A stretch of DNA of 64,000 nucleotides, taken from an uncultured Verrucomicrobiae bacterium (GTDB lineage Bacteria > Verrucomicrobiota > Verrucomicrobiia > Chthoniobacterales > Terrimicrobiaceae). The translations under genes and the position numbers were made by a program. Under the pieces are notes generated by a model. It was not told the origin of the DNA. It ran no database searches and was given only the letters and a program-made list of their open reading frames with translations. Below are positions 5,057 through 31,606 of this stretch, one piece after another. The stretch covers positions 256,001-320,000 of the forward strand of contig CAVPOC010000006.1 of the NCBI GenBank assembly GCA_963706955.1. The letters are read 5' to 3'. The stretch's first letter is position 1. Every line of letters starts with the position of its first letter.

Positions 5057-6166
5057 GTGTTGGCTTTGAGGTCAACCGCCGAGCGCCCGAGGCCATTCGG
5101 TCGTCTCGCTCAACACGGTACGAAAGTTGCTCCGGAGCTTGGAATGCTATCGGATCGGTGTGCGGCGGTGAACCGGGCCGGTCATCTGGCGCTTGTTTTC
5201 TCATCTTTAAAGGCGCTCGGGCTGACCGATCGCCATCTTTTCAGTGACGTCATGCGTGGCGTGCTGTTGGCGAATTCGCGTTTGCTTGGGGTGTGGACAG
5301 TTTGGGAGCCGAATGCACTGGACGGCCGCGACCGGTTATACGCCGGCACACCCGGCCATGACATGAGCGGACGGTTTGTTCCCTTTTGGCATCGCTCCGG
5401 CGGGCAAGTTCGACTTGAGGCAAGCATTGATTATGACAAGCCGGAATCCGAATGGTATTTCGCACCTACACGGCGAAGAGCGGAAGTCGTCATCGATCCA
5501 TACGAATACTCTGTCGCGGGAAAACCCCTGTTCATTTCAAGCAGTGCAGCTCCAATTGTTCATCGAGGCAAGTGCGCGGGAGTGGTCGGATTTGACATCG
5601 ACATGAAGTGGCTGTTCGAGGCTGCGGACGAGCCGGGCCTTTTCGAATCGATCGAAAGCGTTCTTGGCCGAGGCCATATTCTCCTGAACGAAAACGGAGA
5701 GGTGCGATACTGGAGTGAATCAACGAGGCGTTTGGTCTCTCGCTACATGAAGAGCAAGGTGAAGTCGGTTCGCCGGTTGCCGAGACCTCTTCATAATCTC
5801 GTGATCGAGCGACTGCGTGGACAGTCGATCGCGCAGAATCGGAAATTTCCGCCGCAATGGAGCTTCGTTAGTGGAGTCCGTAAGCTAACGGTGCGCTTTG
5901 GGCGCCGCCCACATGCGGGCTGTTATCTGTTGCTTGTCGACGAAGAGACTGAGGACAAGCGTTCATCTTTCGAGGATCATCTCAGCCCGCGCGAGCAACA
6001 AGTCGGCGAATGGGTTGGCGAGGGCAAATCGAACGAAGAGATCGCTATCATCCTTGGGATCAGCGCTCACACAGTGAAAAACCACCTCGACAAGATCTTC
6101 CGGAAGTTGGGAGTGGAAAACAGGTGTGCTGCTGCTGTGGCCATTCAGAGGCGGCATGCAAATTAG
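5057..6166 (+). CDS. Cytoplasmic dCache-type sensor fused to LuxR-family HTH (one-component regulator); start uncertain
   Basis: [10 protein letters not shown]...GRFVPFW...WYFAP...IDPYEY...GVVGFDID chemoreceptor Cache motifs; C-terminal LSPREQQV...[31 protein letters not shown]uxR HTH; no hydrophobic TM segment visible. Confidence 0.85.
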
Positions 6167-6179
6167 GAAATCCTTCCTA
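6164..6179. promoter_or_regulatory. Perfect inverted repeat TAGGAA-ATCC-TTCCTA, candidate LuxR/NarL-type operator
   Basis: 6-4-6 palindrome overlapping the regulator's stop codon, ~190 bp upstream of the amidotransferase. Confidence 0.45.
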
Positions 6180-6366
6180 TTGCGGGGAACACGCTATTCC
6201 TGCGAAATTCTCCGTTCATGGAGGCCTCGCATGATCCCCGTGCGGAGTTCAACCGGGGACTTTCGGCCATCGGGTTGAATCGCGGGAGTTCGATGCGAAC
6301 GACCTCGATGACTCGTCGGACGGTGCTGCGGCTGCGACTACGATTCGCTAGCTACGGCAGGATTTT

Positions 6367-7071
6367 ATGAGGAACAAAAGGGTTTTGTTTATTCAGCACA
6401 GCGAGGTCGACCGACCTGGTCTTCTTGGCGAAACGCTGGCCGAAATTGGTCTTCCCCTCGATGTCATTCGACCGGATCTCGGTCAACCAGTTCCCCAAGC
6501 ACTCGATAGCTTTGCGGGCTTGGTGATGGGCGGGGGTCCGCAGGGCGCATACGAGCAGGAAAGGTTTCCCTACCTCTCAAATGAATGCGCTCTTGTCCGC
6601 CACGCCGCCCGGGTTGGAAAACCAGTCCTCGGCTTATGTTTAGGAGCTCAACTCATGGCTTTCGCTCTGGGAGCACGAGTGCAACCCGGTAAGCCCGAAG
6701 TGGGTTTTTTTGAGGTCACGCTTGATCCAATCTCGCGCTACGATCCGCTTTGGCGAGGAATTCCGGCGAAGTTTATCGCCACACATTGGCACGGGGACGC
6801 TTTTGATATTCCACCCGGCGGTATGCGTCTCGGGTCTTCCGTCCTCACCCCGAACCAGCTTTTCCGTTACGGCCACGCACTTTACGGGCTGCAATTCCAT
6901 TTGGAAATGACCTCCGACCTTTTAGGAGTGGCGATAACGAGAGCCTGTGGAATGCTCCTGCAATCCGGCATCGACGCCGATCTCATCACGCGACAGGGTC
7001 AGGAGTGCCTGCCCTTGCTGCGCGACACCGCCTCGACCGTTTTCACTCGTTGGTCGGAGATGCTTTGCTGA
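6367..7071 (+). CDS. Class I (type 1) glutamine amidotransferase-like hydrolase
   Basis: GLVMGGGP, catalytic GLCLG, WHGD and QFHLE (Cys-His-Glu triad). Confidence 0.9.
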   Translation: MRNKRVLFIQHSEVDRPGLLGETLAEIGLPLDVIRPDLGQPVPQALDSFAGLVMGGGPQGAYEQERFPYLSNECALVRHAARVGKPVLGLCLGAQLMAFALGARVQPGKPEVGFFEVTLDPISRYDPLWRGIPAKFIATHWHGDAFDIPPGGMRLGSSVLTPNQLFRYGHALYGLQFHLEMTSDLLGVAITRACGMLLQSGIDADLITRQGQECLPLLRDTASTVFTRWSEMLC

Positions 7072-7135
7072 GCGGGTGCGCTGGGGTACGCGTCCTCTCT
7101 GCCGACTCGTCAACTCCTGCGCCTGTCGCAAATCA

Positions 7136-7153
7136 TGCACCCTTCAGGGTGTA
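7136..7153. promoter_or_regulatory. NtrC-like enhancer palindrome TGCACCC-TTCA-GGGTGTA
   Basis: 7-4-7 inverted repeat with one mismatch ~75 bp upstream of the sigma54 site; one base longer than canonical TGCACC-N5-GGTGCA. Confidence 0.45.
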
Positions 7154-7225
7154 TTGCCTTTTTGAGCACAGTCGCGCTGGCCGAGCAACACCTTAGCAGG
7201 TTGAAGAAGCCGGCTGCTGATTCGA

Positions 7226-7241
7226 TGGCATGGCAAATGCT
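7226..7241 (+). promoter_or_regulatory. Sigma54 (RpoN) -24/-12 promoter
   Basis: TGGCATGGCAAATGCT matches TGGCAC-N5-TTGC with exact GG-N10-GC spacing, 50 bp before the ABC binding-protein ATG. Confidence 0.65.
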
Positions 7242-7290
7242 TACTGTTTCCTATTCCGGTTAAGCAATCCTCATCCTCTCGCTTCCGCTT

Positions 7291-8274
7291 ATGAATTTGT
7301 TAAAGAAAGCCCTTTCTGTCCTGCTGGCCGGCATTGCTCTGGTCTCATTTTCGTCGAGTTCGGCGGCCGCGGAACCGTTGAAAATCGGCTATAGTGATTG
7401 GCCCGGTTTTACCATCTTGGAGGTCGCCAATCAAAAGGAATGGTTTCAGGAGGCCGGCGTAGATGTGGATCTCGTTTGGTTTGACTACCTGCCTTCGCTT
7501 GATGCCTTTGCAGCGGGCAAAGTCGATGCGGTGACAGTTGTCGCGACCGACGCCCTCGTCAATGGTGCGAACGGCGCCAAGAGCAAGATCATCGCACTTC
7601 TGGATTATAGCGATGGCAGCGACATGATCATTGGCAAGCCGGGGATCGAATCGATCAAGGATTTGAAAGGTCAGAAGGTCGGAATAGAGGCGACTCTGGT
7701 CGAACACCTGCTCCTGCTGGAAGCACTTAAGCAAAATGACATGTCCCAATCGGACGTCGAGATCGTTAATACCGCGACCAATGAAACTCCGCAAACGCTC
7801 GCCTCGGGGAAGGTAGCTGCGGTAGGCGCTTGGTACCCGGTTTCCAGCCAAGCCCTCAAGCAGGTTCCGGGATCAAAGAAGCTTTTTACCAGCGCCGACG
7901 CCAAGGGCCTTATCTATGATGTGCTCGCCGTCAACCCCGTAAGCTTTGCCCAGCGCAAGGACGATTGGATCAAGGTAGTTCAGATATTTTACAAGTGCGT
8001 TGACTATATCAACGATCCGGCCACACGCCGGGACGCCATCAAGATCATGGCAGCAAAGGCAGGCGCTGATCCGGACGAATACGAAAAGAATGTCCCTGGC
8101 ACCCATTTTCTCTCTCTCGCTGAAGCGAAGGCAGCTTTTAAGAAGGGCGACGGCTTCGATTCCATCTACGGATCCATGGCGATTGGCAATCAATTCAACC
8201 TGGAAAATAAAGTCTACACGGAGTCACAGAATCCTTCGAGTTACCTCGTGCCGAGTATCGTCCAAGGCCTCTAA
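7291..8274 (+). CDS. NitT/TauT-family ABC substrate-binding protein (urea/guanidine-carboxylase-cluster type)
   Basis: Signal peptide; LKIGYSDWPG, DYSDGSDMI, LKGQKVGIE motifs. Confidence 0.85.
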   Translation: MNLLKKALSVLLAGIALVSFSSSSAAAEPLKIGYSDWPGFTILEVANQKEWFQEAGVDVDLVWFDYLPSLDAFAAGKVDAVTVVATDALVNGANGAKSKIIALLDYSDGSDMIIGKPGIESIKDLKGQKVGIEATLVEHLLLLEALKQNDMSQSDVEIVNTATNETPQTLASGKVAAVGAWYPVSSQALKQVPGSKKLFTSADAKGLIYDVLAVNPVSFAQRKDDWIKVVQIFYKCVDYINDPATRRDAIKIMAAKAGADPDEYEKNVPGTHFLSLAEAKAAFKKGDGFDSIYGSMAIGNQFNLENKVYTESQNPSSYLVPSIVQGL

Positions 8275-8295
8275 GGCGAACGCGAGCCCAACAGC

Positions 8296-9408
8296 GTGGC
8301 GCATCGAGATTGGCTCGGGCTGAAAGGCGAATTGCCAGAACGGCTGCGACTGGCATTGACCATTCTGTCGTTTGTTGTCCCTCTGGTAGTTTGGTCTTTA
8401 GTCAGCTACCTGCCGTTTCTTTGGCACCCCTTGACCCGCGTCACGGATCCGGGCGGCGTCGAATATTTCGTCGAGGGAATCGAGGTCCCGAACGCGGAAT
8501 TTGCCAAGCAACTCGAGAAGATGGCTGCCGAGCAGGGGGATCTCCCCAAAGGAGTGCGGGTGAATCCGGTATACCTGCCAGCCCCCCACGAGGTATTGCG
8601 GGCGTTCTTCACTGCGTTCACCACGCCGCCGCGCCTTCCCAACGAACCCTGGCTTCATGAAAGCTTAGGACACAGTATTCGGACGATATTTCTTGGTTTT
8701 CTGATTTCCTCGCTGTTGGGCGTGCCCTTGGGAATTCTCTGTGGAACTTACCGCTTCTTCGCTGGTCTCCAGGAACCGTTCATTGAATTTTTCCGCTATT
8801 TGCCCGCACCCGCGTTTGGCGCCCTCTGTGTGGCCATTCTCGGAATCGACGACGGTCCCAAGATCGCCATTATTGTCATCGGAACGTTTTTCCAGCAGGT
8901 GCTGGTGATTGGCAACACGGTGCGCAAGGTTGATCCCGCGCTCGTCGAGGCCGCACAGACCCTTGGGGCTCGTGGCTTACGCCTGGTTCGGCGCGTGATC
9001 ATTCCTGCATCCATTACCGACATCTACACGGACATGCGGATTCTGCTCGGCTGGGCGTGGACATATCTCATCGTTGCAGAAGTCGTCGGCACGATGTCGG
9101 GAATCACCTTTTTTATTAACCAGCAGGCTCGCTACCGGAACTTCGACAATGTCTACGCAGCGATCATGATGATTGGAATCATCGGCCTGACCACCGACAC
9201 GCTTCTTGCCTGGTTTGGGAAGGTTCTCTTTCCTTGGAAGCGCAGCGGCCGCGGAGTAAGACAAGTATCACTTCCGGCGTCCACCGACAAAGAAGCCGCA
9301 GTTGCAGGATCGCCCGACCAAAGTCCCAGATCTCCGCTACTCGGCAACTTCGACAAGTTCGAGCTGACGGGTGCGCGTAAGGCCGGCGCCACTCCCCTGC
9401 AACCCTGA
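8296..9408 (+). CDS. NitT/TauT-family ABC permease
   Basis: FFRYLPAPAF, EAAQTLGA (EAA loop), LGWAWTYLIVAE; multiple TM helices. Confidence 0.9.
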   Translation: MAHRDWLGLKGELPERLRLALTILSFVVPLVVWSLVSYLPFLWHPLTRVTDPGGVEYFVEGIEVPNAEFAKQLEKMAAEQGDLPKGVRVNPVYLPAPHEVLRAFFTAFTTPPRLPNEPWLHESLGHSIRTIFLGFLISSLLGVPLGILCGTYRFFAGLQEPFIEFFRYLPAPAFGALCVAILGIDDGPKIAIIVIGTFFQQVLVIGNTVRKVDPALVEAAQTLGARGLRLVRRVIIPASITDIYTDMRILLGWAWTYLIVAEVVGTMSGITFFINQQARYRNFDNVYAAIMMIGIIGLTTDTLLAWFGKVLFPWKRSGRGVRQVSLPASTDKEAAVAGSPDQSPRSPLLGNFDKFELTGARKAGATPLQP

Positions 9409-9411
9409 CCT

Positions 9412-10315
9412 ATGCTCGCATCCCTCGACTTACCCGACTATCGGAGGCAGGACCCTGAGGTCGCCGCCCGTTTTCGGCGCATCAGGGAACGCCCGATTGT
9501 GCTCGCTGTTCAAGATCTCCGAAAAGCTTTCGGTGACGCGAGGCATCAGCACGTTGTCTTTGAAGACGTTTCTCTTGAAGTTCACAGGCGGGAATTCGTT
9601 TGCATCATTGGTGCTTCAGGATGCGGCAAATCCACCTTAATTCGCATTGTCGCAGGGCTCGATGAGGCTAGCGGAGGGGAAATGCTTCTCGACGGCAAGC
9701 CGGTCTCGGGGCCAGGTCCGGACCGCGGAATGGTGTTTCAGAGTTATACGTTGTTTCCGTGGCGGACGGTGAAGCAGAACGTGATGTTCGGTCTCGAGAT
9801 GCGCGGCAAGAGCTCGGCGGAAGCGGAGAGCACCGCCCGCGAATGGCTCGACATGGTTGGCTTGAGCCCCTTCGAAGAAGCATATCCGCATGAACTGTCC
9901 GGTGGCATGAAGCAGCGCGTAGCCATCGCGCGCGCCCTGGCTAATGAACCTCGAATTCTAATAATGGACGAGCCATTCGCCGCCCTGGACGCGCTCGCTC
10001 GGGCAAAGATGCAGGCTTATCTGCTCCAGATCTGGAAGAAAGTAGATGTCACCATTCTCTTTATCACACATGACCTAGAGGAGGCTGTCTATCTTGTCCG
10101 ACCGCATTCTTGTGTTGGGAGGATGCCCAGGTGGAATTCGCGAGTTCATCGAAAATCCGGTCCCGCGTCCAAGAACACCGCAGCAGTTTCTCACTCCAGA
10201 ATTTCTGGCCGTGAAGCACCGCCTCGACGAATTGATCCACGACCCACGCGAAACTTCCGACGAGGATCGTCTTCCGGTCATAAAGATGACCATGTCCGGC
10301 GACGAAGTCGAATGA
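9412..10315 (+). CDS. NitT/TauT-family ABC ATP-binding protein, +1 frameshift near 10094
   Basis: GASGCGKS, LSGGMKQR, DEPF, ITHDLEEAVYL continuing as SDRILVL in ORF 10094..10315 (CTTG where CTG is expected). Confidence 0.88.
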
Positions 10316-10400
10316 GCCGAGTTTCGGCGGTGAGCGGTACCTTGGCCGGAACCTCGAATGCTGCCTGATGCCAGCCAGTCGTAGCAGTCGATAGCGGGAG

Positions 10401-11726
10401 ATGAGCTCGTTGCGAGAAAAGATCCTGGATACCTTCAGACGGATCCGAGAACGCGGCGAGGATGGAGTGTGGATCTCGCTTCTGACGGTTGAAGAGGCGA
10501 TCAGGCACGCTGAACGCGTCGAGAGCGATTCACGTGAACTTCCGTTCAGAGGTCGAACCTTTGCCATTAAAGATAACATTGATCTCGCGGGCTTGCCGAC
10601 GACGGCGGCTTGTCCCGCATTTTCCTATATGCCGGAACGGAGCGCGACGGTCGTCCAACGACTGATCGATGCCGGGGCCGTCCCGATCGGAAAGACCAAC
10701 CTCGATCAGTTCGCCACAGGCTTAAATGGCACTCGGTCGCCCTACGGTTTTCCACGCAACTTTTACGACTCTGCTTACATAAGCGGCGGATCAAGTTCAG
10801 GTTCCGCGATCGCAGTTGCGGCGGGTTTGGTCGATTTCGCCTTGGGAACCGACACCGCGGGTTCGGGACGTATTCCAGCGGCGTTCAACAATCTTGTCGG
10901 ATTCAAGCCGACTCGCGGGAGTTGGTCAGCAGACGGTCTTGTTCCTGCTTGCCGCACTCTCGATTGCATAACCGTGCTTGCACGAACTCTGCAGGAAGCA
11001 AGTCAGGTCGATCAAGTGGTGAGGGACTTCGATCCGAATGATCCCTACTCGCGAATGCCGACTGATTTTAAACCGCCAGAACTATTTCGGATTGGCGTAT
11101 TGCCGCCCGAGGAGCGGGAGTTCTTCGGAGATGAGGAATATGCGGCGCTTTATGACAGTGCGGTGGAGCGAGCGGCTTCCTTAGGGTGGGCCATCCATGA
11201 ATTTGACTATCGCCCGTTCCGTGACGCGGCGGACCTGCTCTACCAAGGACCTTGGGTGGCCGAGCGATACTCCGCCGCGAAATCGATCGTCGAAACCAAT
11301 CCGCATGCTCTTCACCCGGTCGTCCGCTCGATCATGTTGGCAGCGAGGAAATTTACGGCGGTCGATGCCTTCGAGGCCCAGTATCGGCTTGCAGGACTGG
11401 CGCGCGAATCCGAGAAGACGTGGCAATCGATAGATGCGCTTCTGCTGCCTTCCGCGGGAACAATCTATACAGTCGAACAAATGTTGGCCGCTCCGATCGA
11501 GCTTAATTCAAACTTGGGCAGATACACCAATTTCATGAACCTCCTGGACCTTTGCGGTATCGCAATTCCCGCGGGTTTTCGGTCTGACCGAATCCCTTTC
11601 GGGGTGACATTATTCACCAAGGCCTGGGCTGATCCTCTTCTCTTCGAGCTGGCGCATGAGTTTGAAAACGGCAACAGCGCGACGTCTCCTAACGCAGCTT
11701 CAAACGAGTCGCGCTTCACCAAATGA
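10401..11726 (+). CDS. atzF: Allophanate hydrolase, N-terminal amidase domain only
   Basis: FAIKDNID, GKTNLDQFATGLNGTRSPYG, SGGSSSGS, GTDTAGSGR, LLYQGPWVAER, NSNLGRYTNFMNLLD; stops before the C-terminal domain. Confidence 0.9.
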   Translation: MSSLREKILDTFRRIRERGEDGVWISLLTVEEAIRHAERVESDSRELPFRGRTFAIKDNIDLAGLPTTAACPAFSYMPERSATVVQRLIDAGAVPIGKTNLDQFATGLNGTRSPYGFPRNFYDSAYISGGSSSGSAIAVAAGLVDFALGTDTAGSGRIPAAFNNLVGFKPTRGSWSADGLVPACRTLDCITVLARTLQEASQVDQVVRDFDPNDPYSRMPTDFKPPELFRIGVLPPEEREFFGDEEYAALYDSAVERAASLGWAIHEFDYRPFRDAADLLYQGPWVAERYSAAKSIVETNPHALHPVVRSIMLAARKFTAVDAFEAQYRLAGLARESEKTWQSIDALLLPSAGTIYTVEQMLAAPIELNSNLGRYTNFMNLLDLCGIAIPAGFRSDRIPFGVTLFTKAWADPLLFELAHEFENGNSATSPNAASNESRFTK

Positions 11727-11987
11727 GATAACGGCAGCTGCACTTACGAGCTCCGCCACCGCCGCTGAGGCTGGAGGATAGCGAACCGCTTTCCTTGCCA
11801 CCCCAGAGCTTTGATCGCTCCAAAGAGCAATCCGCGTTCCAAACGTCGCAACAAGCGTTACTTGTGAAGGATTTTCCCGCACCCCGGGCAAGATCCAACG
11901 AACCTTCAAATTCGAGGAACAAATCGGCAGTGTTCTCGGCGAATCCAGCTTCGTGGGGCAGGATTATCTTGCCGGAGCTGACAAAAA

Positions 11988-13465
11988 TCACTTTGGGAAA
12001 TCAATTGCCAGAAACGAGAAATCGTCAGCGAGCGTGTCGGATCCGTGGACGGAACGCACCCAAGCCAGAACCTCTTGCGGAATGTTCACGACTGCGTCCA
12101 TTCCTCAGCAGGTAGGGGACAAAATCTCTTTCAAAATCGAGTCGGGTTCCATCGGGCCGTCCGATTTCATAGGCTCCGTCACAAAAGACAAAGAGGCGCG
12201 AGTTTTCAGGAACTAGGCTTGTGGCGCTCTGATAACAGACACTTGGCATAGCTCCGACAAGCATGCCCGGGCAACGAAGTTCCTCGAGCACGTCGGCTCC
12301 GCTGGCGTCGGATTTGAGGAGGCGTGCCCCGGGATGGCCGCCGGAGGCATGTCGGATCGACCGTCCGGCTAAATCGTAAACTCCGTACCAGATCGTGAAA
12401 AACATGTTGTTGTGGTTCTCCATTTGAAAGTCCTCATTTAAACTGGAGAGCACCTGCCCAGGATCGAGAAAGTCGGTATTTCGAAGTCCCGCGGAGCGAA
12501 TCACATTTATGGCGGCAACAGAGAGCAGCGCGGCTCCCACGCCATGTCCGCAGACATCCAAGAAGGTAAATTGCCAGGTGGTTTTCGTCGATCCAGTGAT
12601 AGCCGAAAGAATCCCCGCCCAATTCGGTGGAGGGTTCGTATGACCCAGGAGATTTTCAACGGCTCTGGCATCGGCGGAGGAAGGGTGGAGACAACGTAGC
12701 GGGCCGCTTCCTGAAGCTCATTCGCAAGGCGCTTTTGGGTTTCCTCAATCCGATGCAAATGACTTCGCTCCTGATCCCGCAGAAATTTTTTCTCGAGACT
12801 TGCCTCGATCCGAGCGCGAAGAAGCGTCGGGTCAAACGGCTTTGGAAGAAAATCTTCGGCTCCGGCTTCAATGCAGCGCACGACAGTTTCGATTTCGTCG
12901 ACCGCCGATATCATGATGACTGGCAGATGCCGCAGCTGTGGATCGGCCTTCATGCGTTCCAGGACAAGGTAGCCCTCCATCTCTGGCATGGCCACGTCAA
13001 GCAAGACGAGATCGAACGCCTCTCGCGAGAGCATCGTGATAGCACGTTGGCCGTCTTCAGCCTGGGAGGTGCTGTGCCCTTGGCGCTCCAGATGTTTGAC
13101 GAGAACGTCCCGGTTCTCCGGTTGATCATCCACGACGAGGATGCGCCCGGCGATTCCCGATCGTCGCTCAATCGGAAAAGCGTCGTCGGGCTGCCGTGAA
13201 GTTATTCATTGCCAGTGGAAAGGCTGGTTTCTGCCGCCGACGCGATGCTGTCTAGGTTTCCAAAATGCTCATCACTAAGTCCCGTTTCGATGACCGCGAG
13301 TAGTTGGCGCCCCGCCGCCGCGATCTTGTCCAAATCGTCCAATCCATTCACCTGACTTCTGGCCAGGTCCTCTCTGAGGAGATCGCAATAGCCGAGGATC
13401 GCGTTTATCGGTGTGCGCAAATCATGGCGCAACTTCGCCAAGATCCTCGTTCGTTCCGATGGCAC
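11988..13465 (-). CDS. HisKA-like + receiver + SpoIIE/PP2C phosphatase (RsbU-like), reconstructed across four single-base indels (~13204, ~12645, ~12560, ~12090)
   Basis: LRHDLRTPINAILGY; RILVVDD...LLDVAMP...FLPKPF; ELGGDSFGY, DVCGHGVGAAL, FCDGAYE; terminal LADDFSFLAIDFPK-TGA at 11988. Confidence 0.8.
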
Positions 13466-13467
13466 GG

Positions 13468-13857
13468 TCAGCGAGGGCGGGTGGTCTTGCCTGCGTGCTC
13501 GAGTTGCAGCGCAATCTTCTCGAGCAAACGTTCGAACTCAATTGGTTTCGTATCGTAGTCATCGCAGCCGACGGCGAGTGCCTGCTCTTTATCGCCCGAC
13601 ATCGCATGGGCGGTTAAGGCAATAATCGGGATCGCCGCCGTTGAGACCGAAGACTTTATTTGCCGGGTCGCTTCCCATCCGTCGAGAGTTGGGAGGCTCA
13701 GATCCATGAGAATCAAATCCGGACAACTCGATTTGGCAAGAGCGAGGCCTTCCTGGCCGTTGGTTGCTAGAACAACTTCGTAACCGCGACGGATTAGCCG
13801 GCGCGAAAGCATGTCGCGATTCATCTCGTTATCTTCGACCAGGAGAATTTTCGGCAT
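13468..13857 (-). CDS. Single-domain response regulator (DivK-like)
   Basis: ILLVEDNEMNRDML, LILMDLSLP, IALTAHAM, YDTKPI. Confidence 0.93.
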   Translation of the reverse strand: MPKILLVEDNEMNRDMLSRRLIRRGYEVVLATNGQEGLALAKSSCPDLILMDLSLPTLDGWEATRQIKSSVSTAAIPIIALTAHAMSGDKEQALAVGCDDYDTKPIEFERLLEKIALQLEHAGKTTRPR

Positions 13858-13913
13858 TCGAACTTAATAGCTCCTCTCGGAGGCTAGTTGAACTGAGTAG
13901 ACATCAACTCGCG

Positions 13914-14271
13914 TCACTTGTCGAGGAGGGTTGTGATCTCGGCCATAGGCTTTGACGGCTGAGGGCCGACTTTGTCAACATCTCTTCAGGCTGCACGCGA
14001 GCCACTGCCGTCCTGACCAGCAAGATCCTGCGCCGTAATCATCACAACCGGAATTGTAGCAGAGCGCACAACACCGCAAGAAAACAGGTATGAACAGGAA
14101 AGCATCGGCTACGAATTCGCGAAGCCGCCTCGTATCACTCGGCTTTGATTCTTTAACATCCAGCGTCGCTCCGGCGAGTTTAGTCCGAGCCATGTCAAGA
14201 TCAGCTTTCCGATTTTCAATAACGATGTTGCGACCGCCCGTGAAGGTCCGGCTGGGTGAGGATTTCCGCAT
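13914..14271 (-). pseudogene. Degenerate receiver-domain remnant
   Basis: NIVIENRKADLDMARTKL...LREFVADAFLF, then in shifting frames ATIPVVMITAQDL...MLTKSALSRQSL..AEITTLLDK-stop; resembles the terminal REC of hybrid kinases. Confidence 0.55.
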
Positions 14272-14296
14272 TAGCTTAATGTCGGTGATGCAGAGA

Positions 14297-16116
14297 CTAA
14301 TTCGTTGGAGGCTCGTTGCGCGCGGGCACTTCCTCGCTAGGTGTCTCGGCCATGCTCACGGGAAGATCGACGATGAAGGTCGAGCCTTGACCAGCGGCGC
14401 TGGTCACTGAGATATCACCGCCCATCAACTGGCAAAACCTTCGACTGATAGCCAGACCGAGGCCGGTGCCACCATACTTCCGGGTGGTTGACGTATCGGT
14501 CTGGGAAAACGGCTGGAAAAGTTTGCCTTGTTGCTCAGGCGTCATGCCGATGCCCGTGTCCTTGATTGAGAATTGAATCCGCTCCGTCGAGTTGTCGGCA
14601 GCGCTATCCGCGTCGGCCGAAGAGAATTCTAGTCTTGATGCGCCGCACGGAGAGGGTGATGCGGCCTCTTTCGGTGAACTTGGTCGCGTTGCCAAGCAAA
14701 TTTAGAGCGTCTGGCGAATCTTCGGGAGATCAGCTCGGATCCGACCGCAATCGGGAGCGACATTGATTTCGAGCTTATTCGAATTCTTCTCGATGAGCGG
14801 CTGCATGGTTGTGGCCACCTCGCCGACGAGGCTGGCGACATCAATTTCCTCAACGAAGAGCGTCATTTTACCCGCCTCGATTTTCGACAGGTCGAGAATG
14901 TCGTTGATGAGCGAAAGCAGATGTTTCCCCGCGCGGCGGATCTTGTTCAGGTCGGAGCGTAAGCTCCTTGACATTCAAGTCCTCTGCTTCGTCGATCAGC
15001 ATCTCGCTGTAGCCTAAAATCGCGTTCATCGGCGTGCGCAATTCATGGCTCATGTTCGCGAGAAAAGTGCTCTTGGTCCGATTAGCTGCTTGCGCGGCAT
15101 CACGCGCCTCCACGGCTTCTTGACGACTCATCTCGGCATCTCCGAGTGCCTCGGAAAGCCGAGAGGCGAGCAGGAAAGAAACTACCAGAACGCCGAGGAG
15201 GATCACGCTTCCGATTCCGTAGAACTGCCAGATGATGGCGAAGGTTTCTTTGGAGACGTCTGGCAGATAAAGCGCGGCGATAACGTCGTAGTCCCACGGA
15301 ACGAAAGTTCTCAGCTTCACCAGCCAGCGGCGATCGATGGCTCTGTGCTGCTCTGCCGCAGAGACAATGGTCTCTATCTCAACGGGGTCGCGGACATTCT
15401 CCGTTCGAAAGATAATTCTATTCTCGTGATCCAGGAGGGCGAAGAATCCGTTGCTTAGGATGCTGCCCTCGTTCATAGCTTCATTGATCTCCGAGAGAGA
15501 CGCCAGCGGGAAGCCAACATAGAAAACCCCAATCGTGTCGCCGCTAGAGCTTCGGATCGGCTCATAGCCTGTGATGTAGGGTTGGCCGAGAATTTCGGCG
15601 ACGCCGAAATAACTTTCACCCTGGCGAGTGGCGGCGAAAGCGGCGCCGTTGGGATCAAGCACATTACCCACGGCGCGCGATCCGTCCGACCGCAAGAGGT
15701 TGGTCGTGATGCGAACGAAACTGTCGCCTTGCTTGACAAAGATCCCGGCCGTTCCTCCCATCAGCTCCTTGAGTTTATCAACGAGAGCGTTATCTTCCGC
15801 GACCGGCGCCGCTCCGAAATAGAGAACCGCTTCGGGAGAGCCACTCGAGTTTGACTGTCCACTCGAGATGAGGCTCCCCTTTTTCCCGGCCAAGCATCCT
15901 TAGAACGGCCATCGAGGAGTGAACGAGCTTCAGATAAGTCGAATCTGTTGTCCCGAGCACATCAATGACGTGATCGAGTTTCGCATCCATCTGTGTGCGC
16001 GCCTGGTCCAGAATATAGTCGGAGAGGCGACGAAATCCGATGTAACCGGCAAACCCCACCACGATGGTCACGAATAAGAACCAAAGAGCGACTTTTGTTC
16101 TCAGCGAGCTATGCAT
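14297..16116 (-). CDS. Membrane sensor histidine kinase with Cache_3/Cache_2-type periplasmic domain, reconstructed across three indels (~15855, ~14960, ~14703)
   Basis: TM1; [15 protein letters not shown]...[13 protein letters not shown]ache; TM2; [48 protein letters not shown]. Confidence 0.85.
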
Positions 16117-16228
16117 GTCCGTGCGGCAATGATCGGATCAATTGACCTCGCCCAGTGGCGAAAGATAAAAATCCGGTTGCGCGGAACAAGAAGAATCCGT
16201 AGTTAGAGTAGGTTGTTCTGCTACTCGT

Positions 16229-16588
16229 ATGGCCGCCTTTCAGACAACTGTTGAGGGAAGCGTCAAGATCCTTTCAATTTCCGGTCGCCTCGATCTCCAA
16301 AGCGGGGCGGACTTTCGCGACACGTTACGTTCTTTGACAGAGGACGATGAGTCGGTCGACCTGCTTGTTGATCTCGAGGGACTGGACTACATGGCCAGTG
16401 CAGGCTTTCGTGAACTGTTTCTTGCCGCGCGCAAGATCAGTCGACAAGGCGGGCGGCTGGCCGTCTGTTCACTCAGAGGCGAGGTCAAACGCGTCTTCGA
16501 GCTGGCCTGTTTCGATACGGCCTATCCCATTTTTGGCACACGGCGGGAAGCTCTGGAGTTTTTCGCGGGACCAAAGCCCGCTCGTTGA
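16229..16588 (+). CDS. STAS-domain anti-sigma factor antagonist
   Basis: ISGRLD, LVDLEGLDYMASAGFR (phospho-Ser motif), VKRVFELA. Confidence 0.9.
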   Translation: MAAFQTTVEGSVKILSISGRLDLQSGADFRDTLRSLTEDDESVDLLVDLEGLDYMASAGFRELFLAARKISRQGGRLAVCSLRGEVKRVFELACFDTAYPIFGTRREALEFFAGPKPAR

Positions 16589-16620
16589 GTCGGCAGACGG
16601 CTTGCGAATTTATCCGGCGA

Positions 16621-17005
16621 ATGAATGTTCGGCTAGGCGTCGTGGGTGCCCATTTGCGCGGTCAACCACTGAACGCGGAGCTTCTTCATCTCGGAGCAAT
16701 TTTTGTCCAACAGACACGCACGGCGCCGCAATATCGGTTATTTGTTCTCTCCAGATACATCTCCGGCTAAACCTGGCATGATTCGATCTCAAAACGGCGG
16801 ATCGATCGAAATAGAGGTCTGGGAGCTCGACGCGATGGCGTTGGGAATGCTGCTCGCATCCGTGCCACCCCCGCTCGTCATCGGAAACGTCAAGCTCGCC
16901 AGCGGGGAATGGATCAAAGGATTTCTCTGTGAGGAAGTCGCCCTGAAGGATGCGCGTGAAATCACGAGCGTCGGTGGCTGGCGCGCCTACTTGGCTTCCA
17001 TCTAG
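16621..17005 (+). CDS. Allophanate hydrolase C-terminal domain as stand-alone ORF, +1 frameshift near 16750
   Basis: VRLGVVGAHLRGQPLN...TAPQYRLF, then PAKPGM...IEIEVWEL...VPPPLVIGNVKLASGEWIKGFLCE...EITSVGGWRAYL. Confidence 0.85.
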
Positions 17006-31532: not shown

Positions 31533-31606
31533 GCGGGTATAGCTTAATGGTAAAGTTCCTGCCTTCCAAGCAGGCCACGCGGGTTCGATTCCCGCTACCC
31601 GCTCCA
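31533..31606 (+). tRNA. tRNA-Gly (anticodon TCC)
   Basis: Acceptor GCGGGTA/TACCCGC, D loop TAATGGTAAAG, anticodon arm CCTGC-CTTCCAA-GCAGG, GGTTCGATTCC T arm, encoded CCA. Confidence 0.97.

Follow-up and report, generated by a model that had tools for sequence, protein, structure and literature searches.

The closest described relatives of the locus analysed here are the guanidine carboxylase operons of Raoultella, Klebsiella and Vreelandella and the guanidinase system of Synechocystis (GdmH, GhaAB and GimABC). The locus lies at positions 5,057 to 17,005 of a 64,000-nucleotide stretch (the window) of contig CAVPOC010000006.1 from an uncultured Verrucomicrobiae bacterium, placed by its named homologs in the Terrimicrobiaceae, Verrucomicrobiota. 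As a preliminary description had it, profile matches place a Cache-LuxR regulator, a class I glutamine amidotransferase-like hydrolase (GATase), the binding protein, permease and ATPase of an ATP-binding cassette (ABC) importer, and allophanate hydrolase (atzF) together on the + strand. The gene set and order of the carboxylase operons, with an Asp-type carboxylase, recur in 11 relatives from the same genus; in the window the importer and atzF are kept, the latter split in two, whereas cgdAB and the carboxylase gene gca are deleted, and the controls in the genus are a sigma-54 promoter, a NikR-like gene and the Cache-LuxR regulator, with no guanidine riboswitch. The guanidinase markers, urease and five classes of pocket residue are shared with Synechocystis (35–39% identity to cyanobacterial orthologs), but the guanidinase is unlinked from the importer, which appears to be inherited from a carboxylase operon, no HypA/B-type genes were seen beside it in the loci read, and it is co-distributed with a CbiX-like protein of 603 aa.

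From sequence and synteny, we consider it probable that this is a guanidine carboxylase operon without its core, that its importer feeds a guanidinase encoded elsewhere, and that the Cache-LuxR regulator senses a guanidine-like amine and binds a palindrome. Under nitrogen limitation, the observed sigma-54 element would drive the importer and atzF, and the guanidinase would convert guanidine to urea and ammonia, with urease completing the pathway, in place of the ATP- and biotin-dependent carboxylase route; atzF would be retained to clear allophanate from TrtA and BiuH. The Cache-LuxR protein, itself sigma-54-driven, would activate the promoter behind its operator, here that of the GATase and in relatives also those of glnT/creatininase genes, a second ABC operon and cgdAB-carboxylase. 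This would represent a known kind of guanidine use, reached as one pathway displaced another; new in it are a candidate protein sensor and its predicted operator.

The features of the locus are:

5116..5131 (+), sigma-54-type -24/-12 element upstream of the regulator, kept across 14 aligned genus loci
5144..6166 (+), Cache-LuxR regulator, 340 aa (Pfam PF22673 and PF00196)
6163..6180 (no strand), candidate operator palindrome overlapping the regulator stop codon, consensus ATAGGAAG-N2-CTTCCTAT
6367..7071 (+), GATase, PRK07053-like, below cut-off
7226..7241 (+), sigma-54 -24/-12 promoter element of the ABC-atzF operon, from the sequence element and its conservation in the genus
7291..8274 (+), ABC substrate-binding protein, NMT1-type, with a GimA-like pocket (profile match, residue mapping)
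8296..9408 (+), ABC permease (profile matches)
9412..10315 (+), ABC ATPase, 300 aa in relatives, with one surplus base near 10094 (probable assembly error)
10316..10400 (no strand), deletion scar by synteny, the site of the nikR-like gene, cgdA, cgdB and guanidine carboxylase in relatives
10401..11726 (+), allophanate hydrolase amidase domain (atzF-N), TIGR02713 and NF006043 over cut-off
16621..17005 (+), stand-alone allophanate hydrolase C-terminal domain (AH_C), 127 aa in relatives, with an extra base near 16754

Deletion of the carboxylase core

The comparison set comprised 81 genomes, namely the window's own genome (G000, 92.5% complete) and 80 relatives, 18 of which form with it a genus set of 19. 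The binding protein was found in 17 of the 18 genus relatives and synteny comparison showed the genes to be co-conserved, as expected of the conserved nitrogen-scavenging locus first proposed. Both cgdA and cgdB are present in 11 of the 18, always at the importer locus and in the order ATPase, nikR-like gene, cgdA, cgdB, carboxylase, atzF. The carboxylase of these relatives scores over cut-off. We take position 1330 of the K. lactis enzyme to fall within the DFTGD motif, where both candidate positions are Asp in the relatives, in all 16 sequences examined. Asp marks guanidine carboxylases according to PMC12186494 and PMC11410670.

A profile search of the window's genome returned no carboxylase of the guanidine/urea type and no DUF1989/PF09347 (cgdA/cgdB) match. 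The carboxylase matches elsewhere in it were AccC, a pyruvate-carboxylase-sized protein (1230-aa frame) and PxpBC, and those elsewhere in five reduced relatives were solely PxpC-sized carboxyltransferase domains. The same reduced locus occurs in G001, G004, G009 and G017 with differing scars, including a nikR fragment in G001 and fragments of cgdB and the carboxylase end in G017, while G007 has the same junction as the window. This identical junction, together with an independent contig that bridges the junction of the window, rules out a misassembly. Synteny thus indicates that the nikR-like-cgdA-cgdB-carboxylase core is lost by deletion between the ATPase and atzF genes. Trees, from which G015 (frameshifted) and G010 (without the locus) were excluded, gave 100% support to a single clade of G000, G007, G016, G017, G001 and G004 and set G009 apart. 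A NikR-like regulator gene (L017:9036-9554 and equivalents) stands before cgdA in many verrucomicrobial carboxylase operons, and it was removed here together with the carboxylase.

The retained genes are under purifying selection after the deletion shared with G007. Relative to that genome, the ratio of non-synonymous to synonymous substitution rates (dN/dS) was 0.09 for the binding protein, 0.19 for the permease, 0.16 for atzF, 0.07 for the GATase, 0.16 for the regulator and 0.09 for codons 1-228 of the ATPase, with 0.36 on its short tail. A decaying locus with an importer no longer functional might be read from the frameshifted ATPase and AH_C genes of the window's assembly, the frameshifted regulator of G009 and the recent-looking scars of G001 and G017. 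We regard such decay as very improbable, given dN/dS of 0.07-0.19 after the shared deletion, frameshifts that neither G007 nor independent contigs show, and fragments nearly identical to the binding-protein gene in RNA libraries that two studies made from soil, which are not proof of transcription. The RNA contigs do not allow genes to be ranked, and the missing coverage of atzF and the GATase carries no meaning. The AH_C frameshift (16754) is absent from contigs of near-identical strains in 4 of 4 runs and the ATPase frameshift (10094) in two of four, one run leaving the place uncovered and another showing it unchanged; both are therefore attributed to assembly errors, and the sister genome G007 encodes an intact 300-aa ATPase.

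Importer cargo and the enzymes encoded elsewhere

GimA binds guanidine at ~100 nM, with a docked pocket of W59, W62, D135, F205 and D233, according to PMC12704784. These residues map to W37, F40, D111, W181 and D210 of the binding protein through a cyanobacterial ortholog with identical spacing, so that W62 of GimA is Phe here, F205 is Trp, and the aromatic-aromatic-Asp-aromatic-Asp pattern is kept. The importer had been assigned to a subtype of carboxylase loci, and its homologs do occur there, although its binding protein scores below the TIGR03427 cut-off (130 vs 334). Among homologs from a plasmid collection (47-56% identity at best), all three records opened, of ten, lay in carboxylase loci, and homologs with 54-55% identity stood directly behind a guanidine-I riboswitch in two of three opened loci (Burkholderia). 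Cyanobacterial matches reached 35-39% at best, with some match in 39 of 51 genomes; gdmH-hypA-hypB-ABC loci were among the best, and a guanidine-I riboswitch was found in four of seven cyanobacterial regions scanned. The GimA-like pocket and the riboswitch-linked homologs make a guanidino compound the likely cargo, as first suggested, and the binding protein would capture guanidinium.

The statement that carboxylase, CgdAB and ureohydrolase are missing holds for the window, whereas guanidinase, urease, BiuH and TrtA are encoded elsewhere in the genome. A single full ureohydrolase (G000:C8:408220-409479) has two solved guanidinases as its best PDB matches (7esr/7oi1 and 9fek, E ~2e-140; next family 5e-49) and is 58% identical to a cyanobacterial GdmH whose gene accompanies hypA, hypB and an ABC importer behind a guanidine-I riboswitch. 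It keeps T105, H222 and W313 (Nitrospira inopinata numbering, from an alignment to 9fek with an inferred chain offset of 2), the residues given as guanidinase criteria in PMC11410670, and is thus likely to be a GdmH-type nickel guanidinase. Urease in the same genome scores over cut-off. Guanidinase orthologs with 85-93% identity occur in G001, G004, G009, G016 and G017 and in none of the remainder of the 80 relatives. Within the genus, 11 genomes have cgdAB only, six guanidinase only, none both and two neither, these last being 59% and 68% complete. The genus would be a natural example of one route of guanidine use replacing another while the importer is kept.

The 603-aa protein with a weak CbiX match (L226:5293-7104; G000:C14:36613-38415) is present in the same six of 19 genus genomes as the guanidinase, its gene lying directly behind that of the guanidinase in four relatives and on a different contig in G000. 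We infer that it is a candidate nickel-loading partner of the guanidinase, which nominates it for this role in guanidinases without GhaAB, an open point for comammox. No shared upstream motif was evident among the guanidinase genes.

Allophanate hydrolase had been described as one gene; it is present (its amidase part scores 582 against a TIGR02713 cut-off of 511) as two, set apart by a STAS gene and a two-component block on the reverse strand. This split is genus-wide: in each of the 16 genus relatives with a detected AH_C, the domain has a short frame of its own. BiuH produces allophanate directly. Of the enzymes for which a genome-wide search had been proposed, carboxylase and CgdAB were not found and biuret hydrolase was: BiuH, outside the window, exceeds the NF050097 cut-off (410 > 370) and keeps the consensus residues in an alignment to 6azo, and it is over cut-off in 14 of 18 genus relatives. 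TrtA, also outside the window, carries F35, N41, A134, E160, Y187 and I205 together with Q202 (alignment to 6xix), the marker residues being those given in PMC7948467. It is therefore likely that atzF is fed by BiuH and TrtA, as in the TrtA-BiuH-AtzF pathway; the three enzymes have their marker residues here, but they lie on three contigs and atzF comes from the guanidine operon. Guanidine, biuret and triuret are thereby suggested as nitrogen sources of soil Terrimicrobiaceae. Metagenomes from soil and rhizosphere, produced in six studies, contain near-identical DNA. The trtA gene (L077:8616-11527, G000:C1) occurs with a permease and a ChrR-like cupin, and biuH is adjacent in several relatives; in the clade of the window biuH is on a different contig from trtA.

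The GATase has an intact C91-H178-E180 triad as read from sequence, and PF00117 (65 bits) scores far above PF07722 (Peptidase_C26, 25 bits), which sets it apart from the PuuD class. It shares the class I fold family and Cys-His-Glu triad with the gamma-glutamyl-amide hydrolases PuuD/SpuA and AtdA2/NpaA2, but differs from PuuD/SpuA in its best profile and in having no cognate gamma-glutamyl ligase in the genus. Importer genes neighbour it in three genera, and in one genus its neighbour is glnT (in three g7 genomes); glnT occurs in 0 of 19 genus genomes, and the window's genome has no TIGR03105 match over cut-off and no creatininase that we found. That GATase, importer and AtzF might form a self-contained, carboxylase-free route to allophanate, as originally proposed, agrees with the finding of the six genes together, under purifying selection, in lineages that lack the carboxylase. 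The proposal is nevertheless barely credible: the carboxylase module has been deleted, and known enzymes elsewhere, the guanidinase on one side and BiuH/TrtA on the other, would account for both ends. The GATase, moreover, is also found beside a full carboxylase operon and has a separate promoter region of its own, and orthologs (56-63% identity) lie near pdhA, malK or trpF in members of the family that lack both transporter and atzF. We take it provisionally to be a gamma-glutamyl-amide hydrolase and not the step towards allophanate that it had been thought to be.

A candidate Cache-LuxR sensor and its predicted operator

The regulator comprises a distal sensor of the dCache_1AM type, a middle alpha/beta module and a GerE/LuxR helix-turn-helix. 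Its probable start is ATG 5144 and not GTG 5057, since the conserved sigma-54 element lies at 5116..5131, and its mRNA would be nearly leaderless. The model of the regulator has a predicted local distance difference test score of 87.5. Its N-terminal module has amine-binding dCache_1 domains as its best solved matches in sequence and fold, and the sensors PctD, PacA, McpX, TlpQ, McpU and the Methanosarcina mazei structure 3LIB share its motif residues and spacing. The AM motif, aligned in 78 of 158 regulator homologs, is kept as R30, D60, W82, W104/Y105, Y120, I131, S133 and D151, with spacings (30, 22, 16, 11 and 20) that match those of PctD and were mapped by spacing and by alignments to 3lib and 7psg; in PctD the motif is given as R103, D133, W155, F188/Y189, M215, S217 and D235 in 10.1101/2023.04.06.535858, which also reports that such domains bind amines, including methylamines.

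Unlike these sensors, the regulator is fused to a GerE/LuxR DNA-binding domain and has no hydrophobic leader in sequence or model, and hence lacks the extracytoplasmic membrane-receptor character of dCache_1AM proteins; it is predicted to be a soluble one-component protein. Cache domains are described as periplasmic or extracellular in PMC8694187, and the dCache_1AM paper lists, in the sections available, kinases, chemoreceptors, second-messenger enzymes and phosphatases, with LuxR unmentioned (10.1101/2023.04.06.535858). The middle module may be a remnant of a proximal Cache (root-mean-square deviation ~11 A). Homologs are mostly verrucomicrobial; the Cache-helix-turn-helix fusion was found in 25 of 79 loci, with the importer, glnT or cgdAB beside 23 of these 25, the remaining loci encoding longer chemoreceptor-type proteins apart from one fragmented locus. 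Our literature search, which covered mostly papers outside subscription and main texts without supplements such as the dCache_1AM preprint motif dataset, which could list such fusions, found no Cache-LuxR regulator described, no guanidine transcription factor in Verrucomicrobia and no glnT-creatininase-Rieske cluster. The Cache-LuxR type is thus apparently undescribed, and it is predicted to sense a guanidine-like amine; as its ligand we lean slightly towards guanidine or methylguanidine, with another small amine the less probable choice.

The 18-bp palindrome ATAGGAAG-N2-CTTCCTAT downstream of the regulator gene abuts a -35-like TTGC, as class II LuxR boxes do. It occurs once in the window (0.02 expected), in a two-mismatch form shared with G007 and G017. 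A search allowing up to one mismatch located it in 21 of 81 genomes; all 21 belong to the 28 genomes with a sensor-domain match, the other 53 having none, while a reversed-pattern control gave one site. Three g7 genomes carry a third copy upstream of a distant cgdAB-carboxylase operon (in G024, at 155 nt from cgdA), and each of four distant holders has the variant ATAGGTC-N4-GACCTAT a single time, at its regulator locus, with none in the cyanobacterial control. A terminator or RNA hairpin was rejected, as no U-tract follows, the sequence is invariant instead of covarying, and copies lie far from regulator 3' ends. These patterns make the palindrome a candidate Cache-LuxR operator.

To our knowledge, guanidine sensing is known almost solely through riboswitches, and the protein control of guanidine genes in the literature covered is by nitrogen status (NtcA). 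A scan of 19 loci with carboxylase or regulator genes, mostly verrucomicrobial, detected no riboswitch; the window has no guanidine riboswitch and its genome no RF00442 (guanidine-I), while the same scan recovered guanidine riboswitches in Burkholderia and cyanobacterial loci as positive controls. The AM motif, the palindrome that tracks the sensor and loci free of guanidine riboswitches together make the regulator a candidate protein sensor. As a ligand-binding transcription factor with a predicted operator it is directly testable, and biosensor use is possible. The dual control proposed earlier stands as to the sigma-54 element (7226-7241), which all 16 genus loci tested share with 8 of 19 loci from elsewhere, and as to LuxR control it is probable. 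About 80-100 nt upstream of this promoter, at window positions 7120-7165, the partly conserved elements TGTC-GAAATCA-GCA and TTTTG-GCAC are present in roughly half of the genus loci and form a candidate enhancer-protein site.

Several observations weigh against our preferred explanation. The exclusion of guanidinase and cgdAB represents two lineages (one clade and G009), not six independent events, because kin are not independent. The guanidinase lies on another contig without operator match or riboswitch, which leaves the regulator without visible control of guanidine breakdown here, and with only ~58% identity to GdmH and changes near its pocket it could prefer a substituted guanidine. The operator of the window precedes the GATase, and for LuxR to control the importer, transcripts would have to read through past the sigma-54 promoter that intervenes. 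G001 (94% complete) has atzF and a TrtA-like gene with no BiuH over cut-off. The GimA mapping passes through cyanobacterial orthologs and residue spacing and not the Sll1080 sequence, three pocket-near residues differ from the riboswitch-linked Burkholderia homologs (N85A, N110S, Q182Y), and in other genera the same binding-protein clade lies beside glnT, creatininase and Rieske oxygenase genes; a methylated guanidine is for these reasons a possible cargo. Guanidine is not mentioned for dCache_1AM domains in the sections available of 10.1101/2023.04.06.535858.

The pocket differences would also fit a substituted guanidine or amine as cargo (methylguanidine, a creatinine-derived compound or a methylamine precursor), with the regulator sensing the released amine and the GATase cutting a gamma-glutamyl amide. 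The methylamine-binding dCache_1AM domains would agree with this, as would the occurrence in other genera of the binding-protein clade and regulator beside a TIGR03105 ligase (over cut-off) and creatininase-family, Rieske, FGE-like and TIM-barrel genes, a set that resembles the ligase/GAT/Rieske logic of aniline and naphthylamine pathways as outlined in PMC11335346. Such a cargo is unlikely in our view, however, given the lack of glnT across the genus and of a detected creatininase in the window's genome, and given that carboxylase and guanidinase, which replace each other, both carry free-guanidine markers. The reduced guanidine carboxylase operon stands as our preferred explanation. Only tentatively, as a possibility towards which we do not yet incline, would we extend it to a Verrucomicrobiota protein guanidine sensor (a cytoplasmic chemoreceptor-type Cache with a LuxR helix-turn-helix and ATAGG-N8-CCTAT operators) doing the job of four riboswitch classes, with one genus in which a guanidinase with a CbiX-like nickel loader displaced the carboxylase while importer and regulator were kept.

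Neighbouring modules and additional features

The nitrogen module is interrupted by genes that lie outside it:

11996..16116, approximate boundaries (-), inserted two-component block of HisKA-REC-SpoIIE, single REC and Cache hybrid kinase
16229..16588 (+), STAS anti-anti-sigma factor, partner of the inserted block

This block splits the atzF halves in some relatives, and elsewhere only STAS or nothing lies between them. It is frameshifted at five places, none of them in related contigs. True pseudogenisation of the ATPase, AH_C and kinase block is ruled out by the related contigs for the places named here; frame changes were seen in 8 of 42 target intervals sampled from the assembly of the window.

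In three genomes that are 95-99% complete (L025, L026 and L173), a stand-alone AH_C gene comes after biuH or the guanidine carboxylase gene, and the sole amidase match in these genomes (G052, G079 and G080) is GatA-like; AH_C might by itself remove allophanate, possibly by decarboxylating it to urea. The positions of these AH_C genes are:

G052:C18:91739-92119
G079:C29:35707-36099
G080:C1:286999-287382

An uncharacterised conserved module, often beside cgdAB-carboxylase (L028, L030, L035, L040, L042, L098, L099 and L076), combines an ABC importer, a creatininase-family enzyme, a type III glutamine synthetase-like ligase, a GbcA-like Rieske oxygenase, and FGE-like and TIM-barrel genes; its role may be to gamma-glutamylate an amine and oxidise it, or else to remove methyl groups from a guanidine. 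A 2-oxoglutarate-Fe(II) oxygenase gene and its neighbour also lie beside cgdAB-carboxylase in Paraburkholderia and Acinetobacter (L196:6041-7980, L197:10284-12172). The Paraburkholderia TIM-barrel gene is 53% identical to its verrucomicrobial counterpart; identification of the TIM-barrel gene as MgdL was rejected, the D49/R51 pair not being at those positions in the compared homolog. A second Cache-LuxR paralog (L046, at G024:C2:1318000-1325600, L047 and L048) is accompanied by a second ABC clade, a PuuE-like deacetylase and a BiuH-like hydrolase that scores below cut-off, and in L046 an operon with glnT begins behind a perfect operator copy. A tRNA gene is located at window positions 31533-31603.

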